Assembly (NCBI GenBank): GCA_017397545.1
Contig: JAFQIK010000029.1
Location: 27,264 to 91,263, forward strand
DNA from: Clostridia bacterium
GTDB taxonomy: Bacteria; Bacillota; Clostridia; TANB77; CAG-508
DNA: 64,000 bases
Reading direction: 5' to 3'
Numbering within the stretch: the stretch's first letter is position 1; the number at the start of each line of letters is the position of its first letter. A model generated the notes under the pieces. It was not told the origin of the DNA and did not search any database. It was given only the letters and a program-made list of their open reading frames with translations. Shown piece after piece: positions 1-37,969 of the stretch. A program made the position numbers and the translations under genes.

Positions 1-170
1 GAAATTACATCTTTATTTCTCATCCATGCTTGTACTGGTATTTTTGGCTCTTCTGGATTTGCATATCTTGCTAAATCGGTTAATGATATGTATTCCTTAT
101 TATTTATTCTAATTACACTTACTTTATTTTTCTCAACGTATATCTCTGTTTTTATTATATCTTTGCTCAT
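1..170 (-). CDS. KilA-N domain protein (partial; only the N-terminus lies in the window, the gene continues past position 1)
   Basis: Reverse strand translates MSKDIIKTEIYVEKNKVSVIRINNKEYISLTDLARYANPEEPKIPVQAWMRNKDVI.., a typical KilA-N signature (ISLTDLA..W.RNK). ATG at 170-168. Confidence 0.5.
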   Translation of the reverse strand, partial: MSKDIIKTEIYVEKNKVSVIRINNKEYISLTDLARYANPEEPKIPVQAWMRNKDVI

Positions 171-501
171 ATATTGTACCTTCTTCCTAATTATGCAGAT
201 ATCGTCTGCACAATTTATTTATTTTCTATTAATTGGCATTATAACATCTATTTCCAAATTTTTCATTAAAAATCTGAAAAAAGTCAAATTTTTACATTTT
301 TAATTATCCTGTAATATTTTGGGTTAGTAATCAAATTATTGTAGATAGCATGCCGATTTAAAGAAAATTTTTAATTTTTCTTTAAAATGTTAAAAGCTAA
401 AATAATTAATTTTTGACAACCAACAGGTCGTAAGACCTTTGTTTCAAAAATTAATATTTTAGCTTGATTTATAATATATATTAAGAAAATCCTACGAAGA
501 G

Positions 502-632
502 CGGGCGATTAAAATCGCCCCTACAACATTTGCAATTAATTTGTATATATTTTTGGGCAGGCACAAGACCTGCCCCTACAAACTCTTAATTAATTTTCTT
601 CACTGCGGGCGAGGATGGAACCTCGCCCCTAC
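502..632. repeat. three tandem REP hairpins downstream of glcK
   Basis: gcgggcgattaaaatcgcccctaca / gggcaggcacaagacctgcccctaca / gcgggcgaggatggaacctcgcccctaca. Confidence 0.7.
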
Positions 633-3149: not shown

Positions 3150-4248
3150 TTATCCTCTTTTTATTTTCATTTGCATTATTGTTCTATTTAATACTTCTAT
3201 ATTTTTTTCTTCTATTTGAGATTTAGCTTGTGCTAAACTTATTTTTTCATCAACAAATAATGTTGCAATAGAATTTATAAGACTTACATTTCCTTTATCA
3301 CTATTTCCTTGTATAGCATCTTCTAATTCTGATACACTAAATTTTTCTTTTCTAATACATCCAGCAACTACATTGTCAACAACCATAACTTCTGGTAATA
3401 ATACTAATTTTCCATCTAAACCTTTTAAAAGTCTTTGTGATACAACAAGTTTTAATAAAGATGACATTAAGTATTTTATACTTGCTTGGTCCCTTACTTC
3501 ATAGAAGTTTATCATTCTGTCTATAGTTTCAGCACAAGATTTTGTATGCAATGTTCCTATAACCAAATGTCCAGATTCTGCCATATCAATTGCTGCTTCC
3601 ATTGTCTCTTTATCTCTAATCTCTCCGTATAACCAATATATCGCAATCTTCTCTTAGAGAATTTTTTACTCCATCTCTAAAATTATCAACATCTCCGCCT
3701 CTTCCAACTTCTTTTTGTACAATCATAGACTTTTTACATTTATGTTTAAATTCTATAGGTTTTTCCAAAGTCAATATTTTCTTATTGTGTGATTCATTTA
3801 TTTCATTTATTAAAGCATTTAATGTTGTTGTTTTTCCTGAGTTTGTTTTTCCTGTAACTAAAATTAGCCCTTGAGGTTGAAGTGTCATTCTTCTTACTAT
3901 ATCTGGTACTCCTAATTCTTCAAATCTTGGAAGTGTGTTTTTTATAATTCTTAATGTAAAAATAGGTAAATCCTCGGCAGATGATATATTAACCCTTAAT
4001 CTTACATCTGCATATTCAAAAGAAGTATCTAACCTTTTTGTAGCTTTATAAGTTTCGTCTTTATCTATATTTCCTCTTACAAAATAATCGTATGCTTCGT
4101 ATAATTCTGTCTCTCCTAGAATATCCTCTTCTTCTATCTCTTTTAATTCCCTAGCTATTCTAAGTATTGGTTTTAACCCTTTTATTAAATGTATATCTGA
4201 TGCATCTTTTTCTATTGCTATATCTAAAACTTTATTTATATTTAACAT
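3150..4248 (-). CDS. pilT: twitching-motility ATPase PilT; needs +1 recoding at in-frame CGG (plus-strand G about 3627)
   Basis: N-terminal ORF has the Walker A GKTNSGKTTT; C-terminal ORF has MEAAIDMAESGHLVIGTLHT. Junction reads GTT ATA C GGA GAG ATT; without the C it gives LVIGEIRDKETMEAAIDMAESG. Confidence 0.8.
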
Positions 4249-30862: not shown

Positions 30863-31095
30863 TAATGAAAAGGAACATTTATTACTATCAACAAATGTTC
30901 CTTTTCTAATTAACCTCTTCCATTTAAACCTCCTTGTTATAAAATTAATACTTTTCGTATCTATAAGAAGAGTATTTATATAATCAACTAGATTGTTACT
31001 TCTAACATATCCTAGTTGTATTTTTATTTTAACACACTTTACATAATCTGTCAACATTTATTGTATATTGCATAATTTAAATTTATAGAGTAAAT

Positions 31096-31192
31096 GTAGG
31101 GGCGACTAGTAGTCGCCCGTCACTTCGAAGCGTTGCTAAAAAATTATTAATAGTTATTCCTACGAAAAACGAGCGAACACAGTTCGCCCCTA
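31096..31192. repeat. REPIN-like element (GTAG-hairpin plus degenerate inverted partner)
   Basis: gtaggggcgactagtagtcgcccgtcacttcgaag ... cgagcgaacacagttcgcccctaaaaa. Confidence 0.65.
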
Positions 31193-31229: not shown

Positions 31230-33188
31230 TTACGCATTTTTCATTATCATTTTATCAAATTTAGAATTTATATATTTTTCTAGTTTCTCCATAAATTCGT
31301 CTGATACTATTTCTTTTTTTGCTACCATTTCTAATCCTTTTTCCCAGCTAGCTGTAAGTTTAGGATTTAACATATCTGGCATTGTAATATTTACTACATC
31401 ATATATTGCTTCTCCTTTTTCGGTTGGAGTTATAATTTGTGTTTTTGTGTTTATTGCAATATATTTTATTTTTTCTAATTTTTTAATTATTTCTGCCCTT
31501 GTTGCACTAGTCCCTATTCCGGCACCTTTTATTTGTTCTCTTAATTCTTCATCTTCTATTAATTTTCCTGCATTCTCCATTGCTAAAATCATTGAACCTG
31601 AATTATATCTTGTTGGCGGTGTTGTTTCCGCCTCTTTTGTATTAATCTCTACAATATTTAATTCTTGTCCTTTTTTTAATGTGTTTAAAAAATCATTTTG
31701 CGGGTCGATGTGGGCATCGACCCCTACATTGCTTGTTTGTTTTATCGGATCGCCTAAAGGAGCGACCCCTACAGTTGGTTTCAATATTTCTAAATAGCCA
31801 GGTTTTGTACATATTTTCTGGCTTGCAGTAAATATTTCTTCTCCAACTTTTATTGTTAACGAAAGTTTGTTAAATTCTGCTGGTGAATAAAATATACTTA
31901 AAAATCTTTTTACAATTATTTTGTATATATCTTTTTGCAAATTTCCTAATTTATCATAATTTTCATATCCTTGTCCTGTTGGAATTATTGCATAATGGTC
32001 TGTAATTTTGCTATCATTTACATACTTTGTTTTTATAAGATTAGTAGAATACTTTTCTTCTATCATTTTGTTTATATATCCTTTTATTTCTTCATCCTTA
32101 AATCCTTTGGCTATTCCATTTAAATTTTTAGATATTTCTTTTGCAACTGCTGTAGACAAAACCCTTGCATCTGTTCTAGGATATGTTACTAATTTTTTCT
32201 CGTATAATTCTTGAATTACCTCTAAAGTCTCATCTGGTTTTATTTTGAACTTTTTAGAACACTCATTTTGTATTTCTGCTAAATTATATAAAAGTGGTGC
32301 ATTTTCTTTTTGTTTTGATTTTTTTATTTCTGATACTACTGCCTTATATTCCTTTACTTTATTTATAAACTCTTTTGCATCTTCTTTTTTCTTAAAGCCT
32401 GTATCATTATATAATTTATTAGAATTATACATTTCAGATTTCTCTTGTGTCTTCCATTCAGCTTCTACAAAGTTTTGTTGCTCTCCAAATTTTCCTACTA
32501 ATTTATAATATTTTGTCTTAACAAAATTTCTTATTTCTCTTTCCCTTGAAACTACCATGCCTAAAACGCATGTCATAACACGTCCTATAGCTATTGATGT
32601 TCTTTCTTCATTAACCTGTTTTGCAACTCTTCTTCCATGAGTAATAGAAAGAAGTCTTGAAAAATTAATTCCTATTAAATAATCTTCTTTTGCTCTTAAA
32701 TATGCAGAATCTGAAAGACTATCATAATAAGACGCCTCTTTTGCCTCGTTTATTCCTCTTAAAATTTCTTCTTCTGTTTGAGAATCTATCCATACACGTT
32801 TTATTTTTGCATTTGGATTTGGCTTTGCCATCATAAGCACTAGTCTTTGAATATATTCTCCCTCACGCCCAGAGTCACCGGCATTATATATTTCGCTAAT
32901 ATCTTCTCTTTGTAGTAAACTTTGTATAACATTAAATTGATTTTGAACTGCAGGTATTATTTCGTATTTCCATTCCTTAGGCATAAAAGGTAATGTATCT
33001 AATCTCCATTGCTTTAGTTTTTCGTCATATTTTTCTGGATATGACATTGTAACTAAATGACCAACGCACCATGTAATTATCCATTCATCTGATTCCAAAT
33101 ACCCATTTTTTCTATTTGTATTTATTTTTAATGCCTTTGCAAATTCCATTGCAACAGATGGTTTCTCTGTAATTAATATTTTTTTCAT
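31230..33188 (-). CDS. topB: DNA topoisomerase III, carrying an in-frame 30-codon REP-doublet insertion
   Basis: Toprim and type IA topoisomerase motifs; residues TVGVAPLGDPIKQTSNVGVDAHIDPQND are encoded by two REP hairpins (31701-31774). Confidence 0.85.
   Translation of the reverse strand: MKKILITEKPSVAMEFAKALKINTNRKNGYLESDEWIITWCVGHLVTMSYPEKYDEKLKQWRLDTLPFMPKEWKYEIIPAVQNQFNVIQSLLQREDISEIYNAGDSGREGEYIQRLVLMMAKPNPNAKIKRVWIDSQTEEEILRGINEAKEASYYDSLSDSAYLRAKEDYLIGINFSRLLSITHGRRVAKQVNEERTSIAIGRVMTCVLGMVVSREREIRNFVKTKYYKLVGKFGEQQNFVEAEWKTQEKSEMYNSNKLYNDTGFKKKEDAKEFINKVKEYKAVVSEIKKSKQKENAPLLYNLAEIQNECSKKFKIKPDETLEVIQELYEKKLVTYPRTDARVLSTAVAKEISKNLNGIAKGFKDEEIKGYINKMIEEKYSTNLIKTKYVNDSKITDHYAIIPTGQGYENYDKLGNLQKDIYKIIVKRFLSIFYSPAEFNKLSLTIKVGEEIFTASQKICTKPGYLEILKPTVGVAPLGDPIKQTSNVGVDAHIDPQNDFLNTLKKGQELNIVEINTKEAETTPPTRYNSGSMILAMENAGKLIEDEELREQIKGAGIGTSATRAEIIKKLEKIKYIAINTKTQIITPTEKGEAIYDVVNITMPDMLNPKLTASWEKGLEMVAKKEIVSDEFMEKLEKYINSKFDKMIMKNA
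31701..31774. repeat. two REP elements inside the topB coding sequence
   Basis: cgggtcgatgtgggcatcgacccctaca ... ggatcgcctaaaggagcgacccctaca; about 90 bp, reading frame kept. Confidence 0.7.
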
Positions 33189-33197
33189 CGCTTCATC

Positions 33198-34940
33198 CTA
33201 TATATCAATCTTAATATGTACATCTTTTAATTGCTCTTCTGTAACGTGGCTTGGTGCTCTCATAAGTAAATCTCTTGCTTTTTTATTTTTTGGAAACGCT
33301 ATTACTTCTCTTATATTGCTTGAATCAGCCACTAACATTACCATTCTATCTAGTCCTGGTGCTGCGCCAGCATGTGGTGGTGCTCCATATTGAAATGCTG
33401 TATACAATGCTCCAAATCTATTTTTTATTTCATCTTCTTTATATCCTGCTATTTCAAATGCTTTTACCATAATTTTTGGATCATGGTTTCTTACTGCTCC
33501 TGATGCAACTTCATATCCATTACATACTACATCATATTGATATGCTAAAATATCTAGAGGATTTATTGTTTCTAGAGCTTCCATTTCTCCCTGTGGCATT
33601 GAAAATGGATTATGGCAGAAATCTATTTTTCCTTCATCTGATAATTCGTACATTGGGAAATCTACTATAAAGCATAATTTATATTCACCTTTTTTAATTA
33701 AATCTAATCTATTTCCAAGTTCTAATCTTACAGCTCCTGCTATTTTTTGAGCTTTCTTAAATTCGTCTGCTATAAAGAAAATACTATCTTCTTTGTTTGC
33801 ATTTAATTTTGTCTGTAATTTTTCTTTTCTTTCTTCATCTATAAATTTTGCAATTCCACCAACTGGATTATTTGCTTCATCAAATTTAACCCATGCAAGT
33901 CCTTTTGCATCTGCTTCTTGAACTGCAAATTCTGACATACTATCAAAGAATTTTCTGCTTTGGCTTCCTCCATTTGGAACTACTATTGCTTTTATTGTTT
34001 TATTTTCAAAAGCTTTAAAATCTGACCCTTCAAAAACATCAGTTACATCTTGTATTATAAGTGGATTTCTTAAATCTGGTTTATCTGAACCATATTTCTC
34101 CATTGCTTCTAAGTATGGAATTCTTATAAATGGAGCTGAATCCACTTTCCAATTTGTATGTTTTGTAAATACTTCTATAAATACTTGTTCTAATACTTTT
34201 AAAACATCTTCTTGGCTAGCAAAACTCATTTCAAAGTCTAATTGATAAAATTCTCCTGGAGCCCTATCTGCTCTAGGGTCTTCGTCTCTAAAACATGGTG
34301 CTATTTGATAATATTTGTTAAATCCACTAACCATTAATAATTGCTTAAATTGTTGTGGTGCTTGTGGAAGTGCATAAAATTCTCCTGGATGTAGTCTACT
34401 TGGTACTAGAAAATCTCTTGCTCCTTCTGGTGATGAATTTGCAAGTATTGGAGTTTGAATTTCTGTAAAACCTAATTCATCCATTTTATTTCTTAATGTT
34501 TTCATTATTTCAGAACGAAGTAAAATTGTATTGTGTAATTTTGTATTTCTTAAATCTAAAAATCTATATTCTAATCTTAAATCTTCTCTTGCTTCTCCTG
34601 CCTTTTCTGAATTTATTTCAAATGGTAAAATATTTTTACAGGTTCCTAAAACTTCTATATTTTTAGCTTCAATTTCTATATCACCTGTTGCAATTTTTGC
34701 ATTTTTATTTGATCTTTCTATTACTTTTCCTTCTACTAATATTACGCATTCTGTAACAATATCTTTTAAATCTATTCCTTCAGATACAACAATTTGAGTA
34801 ATTCCTGCTTCATCTCTTAAATCTATAAATTTCATTGCCCCTAGGTTTCTAATTGTTTGTACCCAACCAGAAAGTTTTACCTCTTCTCCTACGTTTTTTA
34901 ATGTTAATTCATTACAATTATGTGTTCTGTATTTGTTCAT
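33198..34940 (-). CDS. aspS: aspartate--tRNA ligase
   Basis: Start MNKYRTHNC.. behind RBS AAGGGGGAAAAAAGG; class IIb AspRS motifs (..QLDFEMSF.., ..GAPPHAGAAPGLDR..). The listed ORF runs further upstream only by reading through the REPIN. Confidence 0.92.
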   Translation of the reverse strand: MNKYRTHNCNELTLKNVGEEVKLSGWVQTIRNLGAMKFIDLRDEAGITQIVVSEGIDLKDIVTECVILVEGKVIERSNKNAKIATGDIEIEAKNIEVLGTCKNILPFEINSEKAGEAREDLRLEYRFLDLRNTKLHNTILLRSEIMKTLRNKMDELGFTEIQTPILANSSPEGARDFLVPSRLHPGEFYALPQAPQQFKQLLMVSGFNKYYQIAPCFRDEDPRADRAPGEFYQLDFEMSFASQEDVLKVLEQVFIEVFTKHTNWKVDSAPFIRIPYLEAMEKYGSDKPDLRNPLIIQDVTDVFEGSDFKAFENKTIKAIVVPNGGSQSRKFFDSMSEFAVQEADAKGLAWVKFDEANNPVGGIAKFIDEERKEKLQTKLNANKEDSIFFIADEFKKAQKIAGAVRLELGNRLDLIKKGEYKLCFIVDFPMYELSDEGKIDFCHNPFSMPQGEMEALETINPLDILAYQYDVVCNGYEVASGAVRNHDPKIMVKAFEIAGYKEDEIKNRFGALYTAFQYGAPPHAGAAPGLDRMVMLVADSSNIREVIAFPKNKKARDLLMRAPSHVTEEQLKDVHIKIDI

Positions 34941-34966
34941 CCTTTTTTCCCCCTTCAAAATTCTGT

Positions 34967-35016
34967 TGTAGGGGCGAACTGCGTTCGCCCGCGGGCGACC
35001 AAAGGTCGCCCCTACA
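34967..35016. repeat. REPIN inserted between the T-box terminator and the aspS RBS
   Basis: gtaggggcgaactgcgttcgcccgcgggcgaccaaaggtcgcccctaca. Confidence 0.7.
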
Positions 35017-35039
35017 TCATTTGCAATCATTCTATACAT

Positions 35040-35215
35040 GCAAAAATCCCTGCATACTAAATGTATACAGGGACGAAGATAATCTAATTTTCTCCGCGGT
35101 GCCACCCTAATTGGAATTTAATTCCCGCTTCTTTTTTGTTTAATATATAGCTCTAAATGTGTCACTAAATAATTTTATTAATTATTTCCATTTATCAACC
35201 GCTTTTTACTGTATA
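35040..35215 (-). promoter_or_regulatory. T-box riboswitch leader (Asp specifier GAC) controlling aspS
   Basis: Minus strand: TTGACA-17-TAAAAT promoter; specifier loop ..uuaguGACaca..; conserved T-box AAUUAGGGUGGCACCGCGG (plus 35095-35115); terminator ccctguauacauuuaguaugcaggg + UUUUUG (plus 35048-35072). Confidence 0.75.
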
Positions 35216-35714: not shown

Positions 35715-37969
35715 TTATATTTTTTCTACCTTTGCAATTAGTATCGTCATATCATCTTTTGCTATTCCAAAGCCATTATCTATTGATTCTTGAAGTAATA
35801 TATTTGCAATTTTTTGAATATCTTCTGTTTCTATATTTTCCAATAATTCTTTTACCCATATTTCTTTATTAGTAAGTTCTTGATTAGACTCTAATATTCC
35901 ATCACTACACATTACTATTATTTCTCCACCTTTTAGGTCTTTATCATATACTACTAAATCTATATTTTCTACAATCCCTGCAGGAAGTGAAACCGCTTTT
36001 ACAACTTCTACTTTGTTTTTAGCTTTTATAAATGTTGGGCAAGCTCCATTTTTTATAAATTCTATATTCCCTGTATTTCTATCAATTACTGATATATCTA
36101 TACTCGCATATGTTTCTTCTGTTGAATTTAAATTTACAGATGAATTAATTAATCCTATTGACACATCTTTATCAAAACCTGTTGTAAGTAATCTTCTTAA
36201 CATTTTTATAACTGTTGAACTACTTTTTTGAGCTCTTGATCCTGATCCCATTCCATCACTTATTGCCATCATGTACTTTCCATCATGAAGACTTGTTTGA
36301 ATACTTGTATCTCCAGATACTTCACTATTATTTTTAGTAGCTTTGGCAGATGCTATTTGTATTTTATATTTTGCTTCCTTTTGCGGGTCACTTAAGGGCA
36401 TCTTTCCTACGTTTTTTTCTTTCTCTTCTATGTCACTCGCAAGTGAAGATATTACTTTAGATACTCCTCCGTAATTGATTTGCAAGTGTTTTTTTATTGC
36501 TTGCTTCTCTTTGTTTCCATATAAGATTTAATTTATTTATTCTATATGTATGATTAATAGCTTTTACTATTTGGTTTATATCATTTTCTATTTCGTTATG
36601 TCTTTCATCTTCTTCGTTTAATCCTATAATATAATTATTATTTTTTTCAAATACATCAATTAATTCTTCTTTAGTTAATTCCTCTTTATCTTCTAATATA
36701 TCGTATATATCATCTAACACATCATCTTCGCTATATATAATGTCATCATATAATAAGTTATCTGTAAAATCTTCTATATTACTTATTAATTCTTCTTTAA
36801 AGATCTTTTTGCTATCTTCTTTTAGCTCTTCGTCTGTTTCTATTGTTGTTGCAGCCACTTCTTTATAGCTTCTAGCTATTTCAGATATTGTTTCAGATAC
36901 ACTATTTAATTTATGTACTGTTTCTTCTCTAGCCCCTTCTAATGCACCACCTGTTGTTGGTAATAATTTAGTTTTTCCAACTATATCTGATATATCAATA
37001 TCTATAGTCTTTGGTAAAAGTAATAGTCCTAAAGATGCTATTAGTATTTCTCTTATTGTTATAATTGGAAGTGTATTTCCATTTGCAACATATGTAAGTA
37101 GAGCATTACCTACAATAAATCCTACTATCACACCTATTTTTCCTAATCTATTTAGAAGTCCTGCTATCATTCCGTGATATTGCATATGATGCAACTAATA
37201 TTGGCTCCGAATTTCCTATTATTCCAAGTACCATTCCAATAGTAATACCTGCTGTTGCTCCAACTAGCATTCCATTTTTCCATCCTAAGAAAAGTACTAA
37301 CATAATACTTAAAATATTGCTAATTGATAACCCAAATATATTAAGTCCATTTAATGAATAAACTGCAATAGCTAAAAGCAAGCTTGCACCTATTACTTCT
37401 TCTACAGTAAATGCTCTTTTTATTCCATATTCTTTTATTACAGTAATTGAATTTGCAAATATTTTATAAAAAATGTATGTTAATAAAGAAAACATTATAC
37501 TTGCTAATAAATCATATACTAAAAACATTGTAAATAACATTTTGCCTGCTTGTACAATAAAAGAAGATACTAAAACATATACACCTAATTTTTGTTTTTC
37601 GTTTCTATCCATACTTTCATATCTTGGTCTGAATATAAGTGTTGCAACTATAAATAATAGTGTTGTAAGTAAATAGCTTAAAAATCCATTTACTCCAAAA
37701 CCAATTAATGTACCTAAACAAGTGGTTAAATATACAATTCCTGCTGGTATTCTATTACTACATACAGCTGCAAATATAGCAAGTCCAAAAGGCGCAAATT
37801 TTTCTCCAAATCCTACCATTGAAACCATAAATGATACTGCATATAAAATAAAGTCTGATACTGAAAAAAGCTTTTTTAAATTTATTATTCTTTTACTTTT
37901 TTCATTACCAAAACTTTCATTTTCTTGTTTTATTTCTTCATCTATAATATTTTGAAACATCCTTACCAC
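35715..37969 (-). CDS. spoIIE: stage II sporulation protein E (PP2C phosphatase); needs two +1 recoding events (plus-strand G about 36471 and 37174)
   Basis: Three consecutive ORFs cover the N-terminal multi-TM domain, the central domain and the C-terminal PP2C domain (..MAISDGMGSGSRA..). The junctions CAA TTA C GGA GGA GTA and ATA TCA C GGA ATG ATA restore ..NQLGGVSKV.. and ..YAISGMIAGLLNRLG.. when the C is skipped. Confidence 0.85.

Follow-up and report, generated by a model that had tools for sequence, protein, structure and literature searches.

Two GTAG-type REP elements lie in frame within a length-variable loop of a clostridial topoisomerase III-like gene

We analysed 64,000 nucleotides of DNA from a Clostridia bacterium (GenBank assembly GCA_017397545.1, contig JAFQIK010000029.1, positions 27,264 to 91,263 of the forward strand; hereafter the window, numbered from its first letter). 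The window is AT-rich (27.7% GC) and carries topB, a gene for a topoisomerase III (Topo III)-like type IA topoisomerase. Within its coding sequence lie two short GC-rich hairpins, which an initial annotation made from the letters alone had read as a doublet of repetitive extragenic palindromic (REP) elements. The features at the centre of this study are as follows.

31230..33188, minus strand: topB, coding sequence of the Topo III-like type IA topoisomerase that hosts the REPs; an intact open reading frame (ORF) of 652 aa, identified with Pfam, NCBIfam and Foldseek.
31745..31773 (read 31773->31745), minus strand: REP A, the upstream element in the gene, TGTAGGGGTCGCTCCTTTAGGCGATCCGA; codes (T)VGVAPLGDP, residues 473-481.
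31729..31744, minus strand: AT-rich linker of 16 nt between REP A and REP B; codons for IKQTSN.
31700..31728 (read 31728->31700), minus strand: REP B, the downstream element in the gene, TGTAGGGGTCGATGCCCACATCGACCCGC; codes VGVDAHIDP(Q), residues 488-497.

Two REP elements within the topB coding sequence

As first described, the topB ORF continues through both REPs, as KPTVGVAPLGDPIKQTSNVGVDAHIDPQNDF, without a stop or frameshift. The encoded peptide reads T-VGVAPLGDP-IKQTSN-VGVDAHIDP-Q, both elements being in sense orientation and in the same V-G frame. The contrast in base composition noted there was also confirmed, with a GC content of 0.45-0.48 over the REPs against ~0.25 in the flanks. 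Other dimensions had to be corrected: the two elements and their linker span 74 bp rather than ~90 bp, and the "doublet" is a direct (head-to-tail) pair with heads 45 nt apart. Because the two REPs share one orientation, they do not form the inverted doublet that characterises a REPIN (REP doublet forming hairpins) or a BIME (bacterial interspersed mosaic element).

REP B is a perfect hairpin with a 9-bp stem and a 4-nt loop; folded as DNA it reaches -10.7 kcal/mol (z = -4.2), and none of 200 shuffled sequences was as stable. REP A is degenerate, with a single C->T change in its 3' arm, and folds as DNA at -4.9 kcal/mol (z = -1.7); in the sense RNA the changed base forms a G-U pair and the hairpin is retained (-12.9 kcal/mol, z = -2.5). 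A terminator scan detected no terminator-like site on the sense strand at the topB REPs, and we rejected the idea that they act as an internal transcription terminator. A search of the window against Rfam returned two tRNAs only, and the topB REPs match no known RNA family.

The topB elements belong to a dispersed GTAG family

A search for the REP head in the window returned about 30 elements composed of the head TGTAGGGG, an arm of 5-9 bp, a loop, the second arm and CCCG(C); both topB REPs begin with this head, as do about 30 others. What defines the GTAG REP super-family is a GTAG tag combined with a palindrome (PMC3733652), and the topB elements are genuine members of this dispersed family. 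An 11-mer that they share, CGACCCCTACA, occurs eight times in the window with at most one mismatch, against 0.04 expected. The REP B core is 1 nt different from that of an intergenic copy at 13773-13801, and the exact 29-mer of REP B was found on other metagenome contigs.

The cores within the window are diverse and all self-complementary (CGACTAGTAGTCG, CGATTTTAATCG, TCGCTGCCCACAGCGA and CGAACTGCGTTCG among others), and the elements are arranged singly, as tandem arrays or as inverted pairs; tandem direct arrays with a spacing of 40-90 nt are common in this genome. Apart from the two copies in topB and one decayed relic in SpoIIE, all are intergenic, and their flanks share no conserved target other than A/T richness. 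Two intergenic members are used here for comparison.

13773..13801, plus strand: intergenic REP TGTAGGGGTCGATGCCCACATTGACCCGA, the nearest relative of REP B in the window; forms an inverted pair with a copy at 13813-13847.
31095..31120, plus strand: intergenic REP with the commonest core, TGTAGGGGCGACTAGTAGTCGCCCGT, between topB and asnS; the usual extragenic site of the family.

The host gene is intact and under purifying selection

The window topB product matches both Toprim (PF01751) and Topoisom_bac (PF01131) in Pfam, with domain matches on either side of the REP-coded residues 473-497 (of 652). An identical protein, named 'type IA DNA topoisomerase' by NCBI, occurs on 10 contigs. The NCBIfam topB model TIGR01056 gave 491.5 bits (cut-off 515.75) and PRK07726 gave 556.9 (cut-off 597), neither cut-off being reached because the C-terminal parts of the profiles are unmatched. 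Over its full length the protein can be aligned with E. coli Topo III (1d6m; E = 7e-70, ~26% identity), its catalytic Tyr336 (TYPR motif) being aligned with E. coli Y328. The E. coli enzyme is known from the literature to have a decatenation loop, which we take to comprise residues 502-519 in domain IV; this stretch, GIARFVQDKDLKKILRAT, has an ungapped counterpart in the window protein, NAGKLIEDEELREQIKGA, that is less basic.

Catalytic and structural residues are invariant among the 51 orthologues aligned. Outside the loop that holds the REPs, the ratio of nonsynonymous to synonymous substitution rates (dN/dS) is 0.05-0.12 in all pairs, whether both, one or neither member carries REPs; it is ~0.07 for REP-bearing pairs and the same against the REP-free locus L005. 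The window topB is therefore under purifying selection. As a separate observation, the acidic motif of the TOPRIM domain (residues 105-111) reads D-S-G-R-E-G-E (GDSGREGE), compared with D-P-D-R-E-G-Q in E. coli. The second Asp of the DxD motif is replaced by Gly in all 51 aligned orthologues of the clade, REP-free ones included.

The REPs occupy a length-variable loop of domain II

Our topB comparison covered related uncultured Clostridia, with 120 orthologous proteins and 80 genomic loci, and took as the loop the segment between the conserved anchors GYLE(I/V) and LKKGQ. The alignment confirmed that the REPs are an insertion, in that REP-free orthologues exist. Loop length among the orthologues ranges from 27 to 86 residues; the shortest REP-free loops comprise 27-28 aa (e.g. 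GYLEILKPKKEDGEKEPSTLLRELKKGQ), and the corresponding stretch of E. coli Topo III is 27 aa long. At 45 aa, the window loop represents a net gain of 17-18 aa over the shortest REP-free orthologues, fewer than the 30 or so residues that the initial annotation had proposed. That annotation had also held that a similar segment in REP-free orthologues would speak against an insertion. Similarity of length is indeed common, many REP-free loops being as long as that of the window or longer, but their sequence is unrelated: in more distant orthologues the loop is made of K/E/N-rich low-complexity sequence and GC-rich REPs are absent.

An AlphaFold2 model of the window protein, built from a 51-sequence alignment, had a mean predicted local distance difference test score (pLDDT) of 71.5. 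Residues 474-497, exactly the REP-coded stretch, have pLDDT values below 50 and no secondary structure, and are flanked by confident beta-strands in the second half of domain II. The REP site is thus predicted to be a disordered, length-variable loop in domain II; the initial annotation had expected a surface loop. A Foldseek search with the model returned E. coli Topo III chains as best matches with a template modelling (TM) score of only ~0.4; given this value for 1d6m, we did not interpret the geometry of the model.

In molecular-dynamics simulations of E. coli Topo III, the decatenation loop is contacted by an 'acidic loop' (248-253) that belongs to the first half of domain II. The REP site aligns at ~448-464, and we rejected an equivalence of the two loops.

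An allelic series at two fixed codon positions

Of the 120 orthologues, 34 have a loop with one or two REP peptides that can be recognised, and the frame is V-G...(D/R)P(Q/K) in every case. REP-bearing and REP-free alleles are interleaved in a tree from which the loop was left out. Among close relatives the number of REPs varies from zero to two, and the codon positions that they occupy are the same two, here called site A and site B after the elements of the window. The topB gene of locus L081 (93% aa identity, 0.31 synonymous substitutions per site, dS) has REPs at both positions with an identical 45-nt head spacing, and their cores differ from those of the window (TCGCTGCCCACAGCGA at site A, CGAACTGTGTTCG at site B). 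Intact REPs of other cores occupy site A in L081/P0002 and many more orthologues. Loci L083 and L001 carry a REP at site B only, and its core, CAGACGACTCTGTCTG, is a third one. The site B hairpins of the window, L081 and L083/L001 (pairwise dS ~0.3) are all perfect and differ in their cores, each of which matches or closely resembles an intergenic REP core from the window or L081. In L002, L004 and L007 the topB loop contains AT-decayed REP relics.

The two sites differ in how their cores could have diverged. At site A the window and L081 differ at 7 of 27 positions, as expected at dS ~0.31, and REP A could be a point-mutated descendant of the L081 site A copy. Divergence by point mutation fails as an explanation for site B, where every core is a perfect palindrome and the cores are unequal in both length and sequence.

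One pair of orthologues, P0009 (two REPs) and P0044 (none), is 100% identical outside the loop. Their DNA differs by the loop segment, by five substitutions clustered in 25 nt just 3' of it and by two elsewhere in 1.9 kb; between L205 and L207, the five clustered substitutions fall at topB alignment positions 1511-1535 and are of synonymous type. The cluster is the mark of a short recombination tract that carried the loop allele, and loop alleles are therefore shuffled between strains as well. The data do not support a clean insertion or excision event separating P0009 from P0044, the clustered flanking substitutions indicating a recombination patch.

Only one reading frame of the REPs is always open

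Frame statistics were compiled for 59 unique REPs in all six frames. The sense V-G frame (GTA GGG) is the only one that is never interrupted (a stop in 0/59) and encodes 1.6% Cys and 6% Arg. The third sense frame, which reads TAG, contains a stop in 59/59. The four frames other than these two are closed in 5-10% of cases and have a high content of Arg, Cys or Pro; among them, the sense C-R-G frame encodes 15% Cys and 32% Arg. The V-G frame bias is sufficiently explained by selection on the peptide; a mechanistic target preference behind it is possible.

A REP-flanked transposase gene on another contig

A candidate mobiliser was found on L134, a contig of 30% GC. Here an ORF of 161 aa (96-581, minus strand) contains HUH (NHIHFI) and Tyr (RNYYEH) motifs; it scores above the cut-off of Pfam Y1_Tnp and matches the NCBIfam model NF047646 for REP-associated tyrosine transposases (RAYTs) with E = 6e-16, below the cut-off of that model. 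Three tandem REPs with a 62-nt period lie upstream of the ORF and one inverted REP lies downstream (~30-70 and 640-830), all matching the same search pattern as those of the window. With this arrangement, the RAYT-like gene and its flanking REPs constitute a REPtron, located on a contig other than the window. It is found directly downstream of a SpoIVB-like peptidase gene, and a fragmentary RAYT match on L094 (~3237-3479) likewise follows a SpoIVB-like gene.

TnpA-REP recognises folded single-stranded REPs via the GTAG motif and the hairpin, and in vitro it performs REP cleavage and strand transfer at short nearby CT/CA sites that are possibly selected through GTAG (PMC8266576). Group 1 RAYTs are known in Clostridia (PMC5581495). 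By analogy, RAYT activity is a plausible route both to REP gain and to the exchange of one REP for another.

Intragenic REPs in other genes and in metagenomes

A second coding sequence of the window, a SpoIIE-like ORF, carries a REP in the V-G frame.

36378..36413, minus strand: relic of a decayed REP, AACGTAGGAAAGATGCCCTTAAGTGACCCGCAAAAG = NVGKMPLSDPQK, in frame within the linker that precedes the PP2C domain of the SpoIIE-like ORF; V-G frame.

At the orthologous position of the L081 SpoIIE, again in the linker before the PP2C domain, a better preserved in-frame REP is present, NVGVDAYSDPQK. The SpoIIE homologue itself is spread over overlapping ORFs of different frames, in three pieces in the window (35715-37969, minus strand) and in L081 (1818-4069) and in two pieces in L205 (413-2654). 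Just upstream of the relic the break reads TTA CGG A GGA GTA TCT in both the window and L081. In L205 there is an ORF break at a similar position, and a pattern search there did not find this motif. There are three possible readings of the break: a conserved site of +1 frameshifting, a gene that is truly split, or a pseudogene shared by these relatives.

A metagenome scan covering one REP subfamily (pattern TGTAGGGGTCG-N8-12-CGACCCGC) yielded 128 copies on 120 contigs (loci L085-L204) with GC contents from 27% to 70%, many of them from gut samples. The family is thus widespread in metagenomes, across organisms of very different base composition. All but two of the copies (126/128) are extragenic. 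The two truly intragenic ones (~2%) are a REP in the linker between domains of a MiaB-like radical-SAM methylthiotransferase (NVGVAPKGDPQK, V-G frame) and an inverted pair within UppP/BacA in other frames and orientations. Many further cases of a REP inside a long ORF on high-GC contigs were rejected, the REP lying 5' of the evident true start in a spurious ORF extension; REPs just upstream of start codons were a feature of these contigs. Intragenic REPs are rare, yet not unique to topB: SpoIIE in the window and the MiaB-like and UppP/BacA genes in metagenomes carry them too. A query of a 5.8-billion-protein database with the concatenated REP peptides gave 656 word-sharing candidates, none at E <= 10.

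Intergenic REPs can also be taken for coding sequence. An inverted pair at 34965-35018 (34968/35015), upstream of aspS, lies inside a predicted ORF (33198-35105, minus strand). The longest-ORF prediction of aspS there places MAPRRKL...GATFGRPRANAVRPYN... ahead of the real start MNKYRTHNC as a spurious N-terminal extension; at this ORF, REPs cause mis-annotation.

An inverted repeat in the same loop of sister species

In species without GC-rich REPs, the same loop (window 31700-31773) contains a different element. A perfect inverted repeat, TCCACA-N14-TGTGGA, occurs exactly once per ~8-kb locus and always in the topB loop (35 of 80 loci, among L008-L080; for example L030, 4429-4454). It encodes K-S-T-x5-N-V-E, with a spacer of constant length and variable sequence. 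By chance, ~0.15 matches would be expected over the 80 loci combined. The arms are written in rare codons (TCC, 5% of Ser codons; GTG, 13% of Val codons). In other Ser and Val columns that are invariant, the majority codon is retained in only ~60% of cases. This pattern of conservation suggests constraint at the nucleotide level.

Gene neighbourhood of topB

The genes asnS, aspS and purC lie near topB in the window, with SpoIIE further along. Syntenic contigs from related organisms additionally encode SpoIIID and SipL, and these genes therefore point to a spore-former as the source bacterium. Gene order around topB varies among close relatives: aspS is followed directly by topB in the window, L081 and L083 have Tim44-like and Band_7 genes between the two and a 203-aa gene after topB, and a D-Tyr-tRNA deacylase gene occupies the locus next to topB in L205. 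One further hairpin lies at the 3' end of the gene.

31171..31189, minus strand: REP-like hairpin GGGCGAACTGTGTTCGCTC, whose head is mutated; lies 40 nt past the topB stop and precedes a T-run; likely terminator.

Its core is CGAACTGTGTTCG and its head is changed to TTTAGGGG; the topB terminator may be a REP that was co-opted as, or decayed into, an intrinsic terminator.

Discussion

We propose that the REPs in topB are near-neutral passengers, copies of a GTAG REP family residing in a permissive loop of an enzyme that is still functional, and we put the probability of this reading at about 0.8. The elements are GTAG-tagged, perfect-palindrome hairpins of the type mobilised as single-stranded DNA by the HUH tyrosine transposase RAYT/TnpA-REP. 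They would have become fixed where topB codes for a loop, in the second half of domain II, that is disordered and tolerant of changes in length. Three properties could account for their survival there: the sense orientation and V-G frame, which never contain a stop and give a Gly/Asp/Pro peptide with little Cys or Arg; a summed REP length that preserves the frame; and a loop without constraint on length or sequence. For these reasons the enzyme would stay functional, and the REP peptide would be a near-neutral passenger and not a recruited module. In populations the loop would behave as a polymorphic cassette in which REPs are gained, swapped for other cores, eroded by AT-biased mutation and passed between strains by short-patch homologous recombination.

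Several points weigh against this proposal. A tblastn search of the window with an E. coli RAYT sequence, which is a weak test, found no significant match, and mobilisation by a RAYT in the window's own genome is only proposed. The signature of recombination between L205 and L207 means that differences in REP presence need not each reflect a transposition event. The structural model is of moderate quality only (mean pLDDT 71.5, TM ~0.4 to 1d6m), and the loop may face the central hole and may affect gate dynamics. Finally, target-site or strand specificity, rather than selection on the peptide, could be the reason why a single orientation and frame is seen at both sites and in all three genes.

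This last point leads to the first alternative: the loop DNA may be a target for RAYT and REPs, or a resident REP may attract others, so that position, orientation and frame are set by the mechanism. We regard such targeting as possible but less likely than not. It would account for the same two sites receiving different REP cores in different lineages, and for the context AAT-GTAGGGG...CCCGC-AAA, orientation and frame that the REPs in SpoIIE and the MiaB-like gene have in common. Tandem direct arrays (40-90 nt spacing) are common here and also found beside the L134 RAYT, and the action of TnpA-REP in vitro at short CT/CA sites, possibly chosen via GTAG, would supply a biochemical basis (PMC8266576). 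However, intergenic REPs have no conserved target in their flanks beyond A/T richness, the UppP REPs lie in other frames and orientations, and the frame statistics already provide a sufficient selective explanation. Targeting is also compatible with, and does not exclude, passengers that are near-neutral once in place.

A second alternative is domestication, in which the REP peptide or the DNA/mRNA hairpin has been recruited, for instance for the Topo III gate, for contact with a partner or for cis-regulation of topB. The recurrence of REPs at exactly two codon positions and in one frame across many lineages fits this view, as does the G-U pair by which the degenerate REP A retains its RNA hairpin. 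The TCCACA-N14-TGTGGA repeat of the sister clades, with its rare codons in the same loop, hints at nucleotide constraint, and domain II also bears the acidic loop that contacts the decatenation loop in simulations of the E. coli enzyme. Against this, alleles with zero, one or two REPs coexist in near-identical genes, the cores are interchangeable and encode different peptides (VGVDAHIDP, VGANCVRP, VGADDSVCP), relics are decaying in several lineages, the E. coli acidic loop (248-253) is not the stretch aligned to the REP loop (~448-464), and the REPs lack a terminator signal on the sense strand. We therefore consider domestication unlikely. The initial annotation had left open whether the elements were domesticated or tolerated in an "essential-class enzyme": purifying selection on the gene upholds tolerance, while presence/absence polymorphism, relics and interchangeable cores count against domestication. 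The description of the host as essential was overstated, as topB is dispensable in E. coli and B. subtilis.

The inverted repeat of the sister species allows a bolder form of the same idea. Because sister clades keep TCCACA-N14-TGTGGA in the domain II loop and this clade has REP hairpins there, the loop might be a slot in which a nucleic-acid hairpin is itself selected, with REPs recruited rather than merely tolerated. We think this improbable too; if true, topB would contain a DNA or mRNA stem-loop with a cis function, such as expression control or provision of a single-stranded DNA structure for Topo III or RAYT. In a weaker version, the loop may be a natural record of REP-for-REP replacement in situ by RAYT.

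That the REPs inactivated topB and the gene is decaying is very improbable. The NCBIfam scores slightly under the topB cut-offs and the D-S-G in place of D-x-D in the TOPRIM motif would suit a pseudogene, but the ORF is intact, D-S-G is present in 51/51 aligned orthologues including REP-free ones, dN/dS is ~0.07 in REP-bearing pairs and equal to the value against the REP-free L005, and the catalytic Tyr is conserved. It is scarcely credible that there was no insertion, with GC-rich palindromic codons being ancestral or convergent in the loop or arising as an assembly artefact: many REP-free orthologues do have long loops and the window does come from a metagenome-assembled genome, but the cores equal or nearly equal those of intergenic family members, the rise in GC is confined to the elements, the minimal loops of 27-28 aa have the E. 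coli length, and the identical protein is found on 10 contigs with related alleles from many independent assemblies.

The case of topB illustrates that GTAG-type REPs, most familiar from Proteobacteria, occur in abundance in AT-rich uncultured gut Clostridia and occasionally become coding sequence. At its two fixed codon positions, the topB loop provides a compact series of natural alleles (absent, one, two, different cores, relics), in some cases within otherwise identical genes, and this series can be used for studying REP gain, replacement and loss, which are still poorly understood. For annotation, REP peptides (VG..DPQ) inflate apparent protein divergence, and translated intergenic REPs add spurious N-terminal extensions, as at aspS. 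The understanding of topoisomerase III is unchanged by the topB REPs.

Comparison with known systems

The closest known system is that of GTAG REPs/REPINs and RAYTs (Nunvar 2010; Bertels & Rainey 2011; Ton-Hoang 2012; PMC3733652; PMC8266576). The elements described here share with it a GC-rich palindrome of 26-30 nt after an unpaired (T)GTAG, dozens of copies that are nearly all extragenic and frequently grouped, in tandem or inverted, a large number of cores whose arms show compensatory changes, and an HUH-Tyr RAYT-like gene flanked by REPs (on L134). As perfect palindromes they resemble the second REP class of Corneloup et al. (PMC8266576). They differ in their host, an AT-rich (27.7% GC) member of the uncultured gut Clostridia, in that GTAG REPs are listed only for Proteobacteria, Cyanobacteria, Chloroflexi and the PVC group (PMC3733652), and our literature searches found no description of REPs in Clostridia. 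They differ also in the direct orientation of the topB copies inside a coding sequence, and no RAYT was seen in the window by the weak tblastn test.

E. coli TopB (1D6M, 1I7D, 2O5C) shares with the window protein the Toprim and Topoisom_bac core, the absence of C-terminal zinc-finger domains and the TYPR Tyr, and its 27-aa loop equals in length that of REP-free orthologues. The two proteins differ in overall sequence (~26% identity) and in the TOPRIM motif (D-S-G here, D-P-D in E. coli), and the domain II loop (~448-464, SKERDEENDG, in E. coli) is expanded and hypervariable in this clade and filled by REPs in the window.

Another precedent is provided by the Rickettsia palindromic elements (RPEs), selfish palindromic repeats in frame in protein-coding genes that stay functional. 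RPE-1 is ~100-150 bp long, has alphaproteobacterial obligate intracellular hosts and hits many different genes per genome. The topB elements are 29 nt long, GTAG-headed and of a different sequence family, and they do not match RPEs; only two of the ~30 window copies, plus one relic, are intragenic. RPEs were the first in-frame palindromic repeats to be described in genes (Ogata et al. 2000, cited in PMC3733652), and the intragenic REPs of R. conorii are of the CGTC type (PMC3733652).

The REP-decorated proteins of Di Nocera, De Gregorio & Rocco (2013, BMC Genomics 14:522; PMC3733652) are the nearest parallel to topB itself. That study reported intragenic, in-frame GTAG and CGTC REPs in several phyla, often in replication or repair enzymes (UvrA/B/D, DnaE, PolA, ligase); more than half were dimers or groups coding 20-30 aa, and they were proposed to sit in flexible linkers or loops and to be neutral. 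As there, a REP lies in frame and without a stop well inside a real coding sequence, some homologues of which lack it. The text and text-form supplementary tables of that study include no topoisomerase and no Firmicutes among the REP-decorated hosts, and it does not describe the same loop being occupied in many related species, with allelic presence or absence and replacement of cores. In-frame intragenic REPs were thus already known; new here are the host lineage (Clostridia), the host gene (topB) and a clear multi-allelic series at fixed positions.

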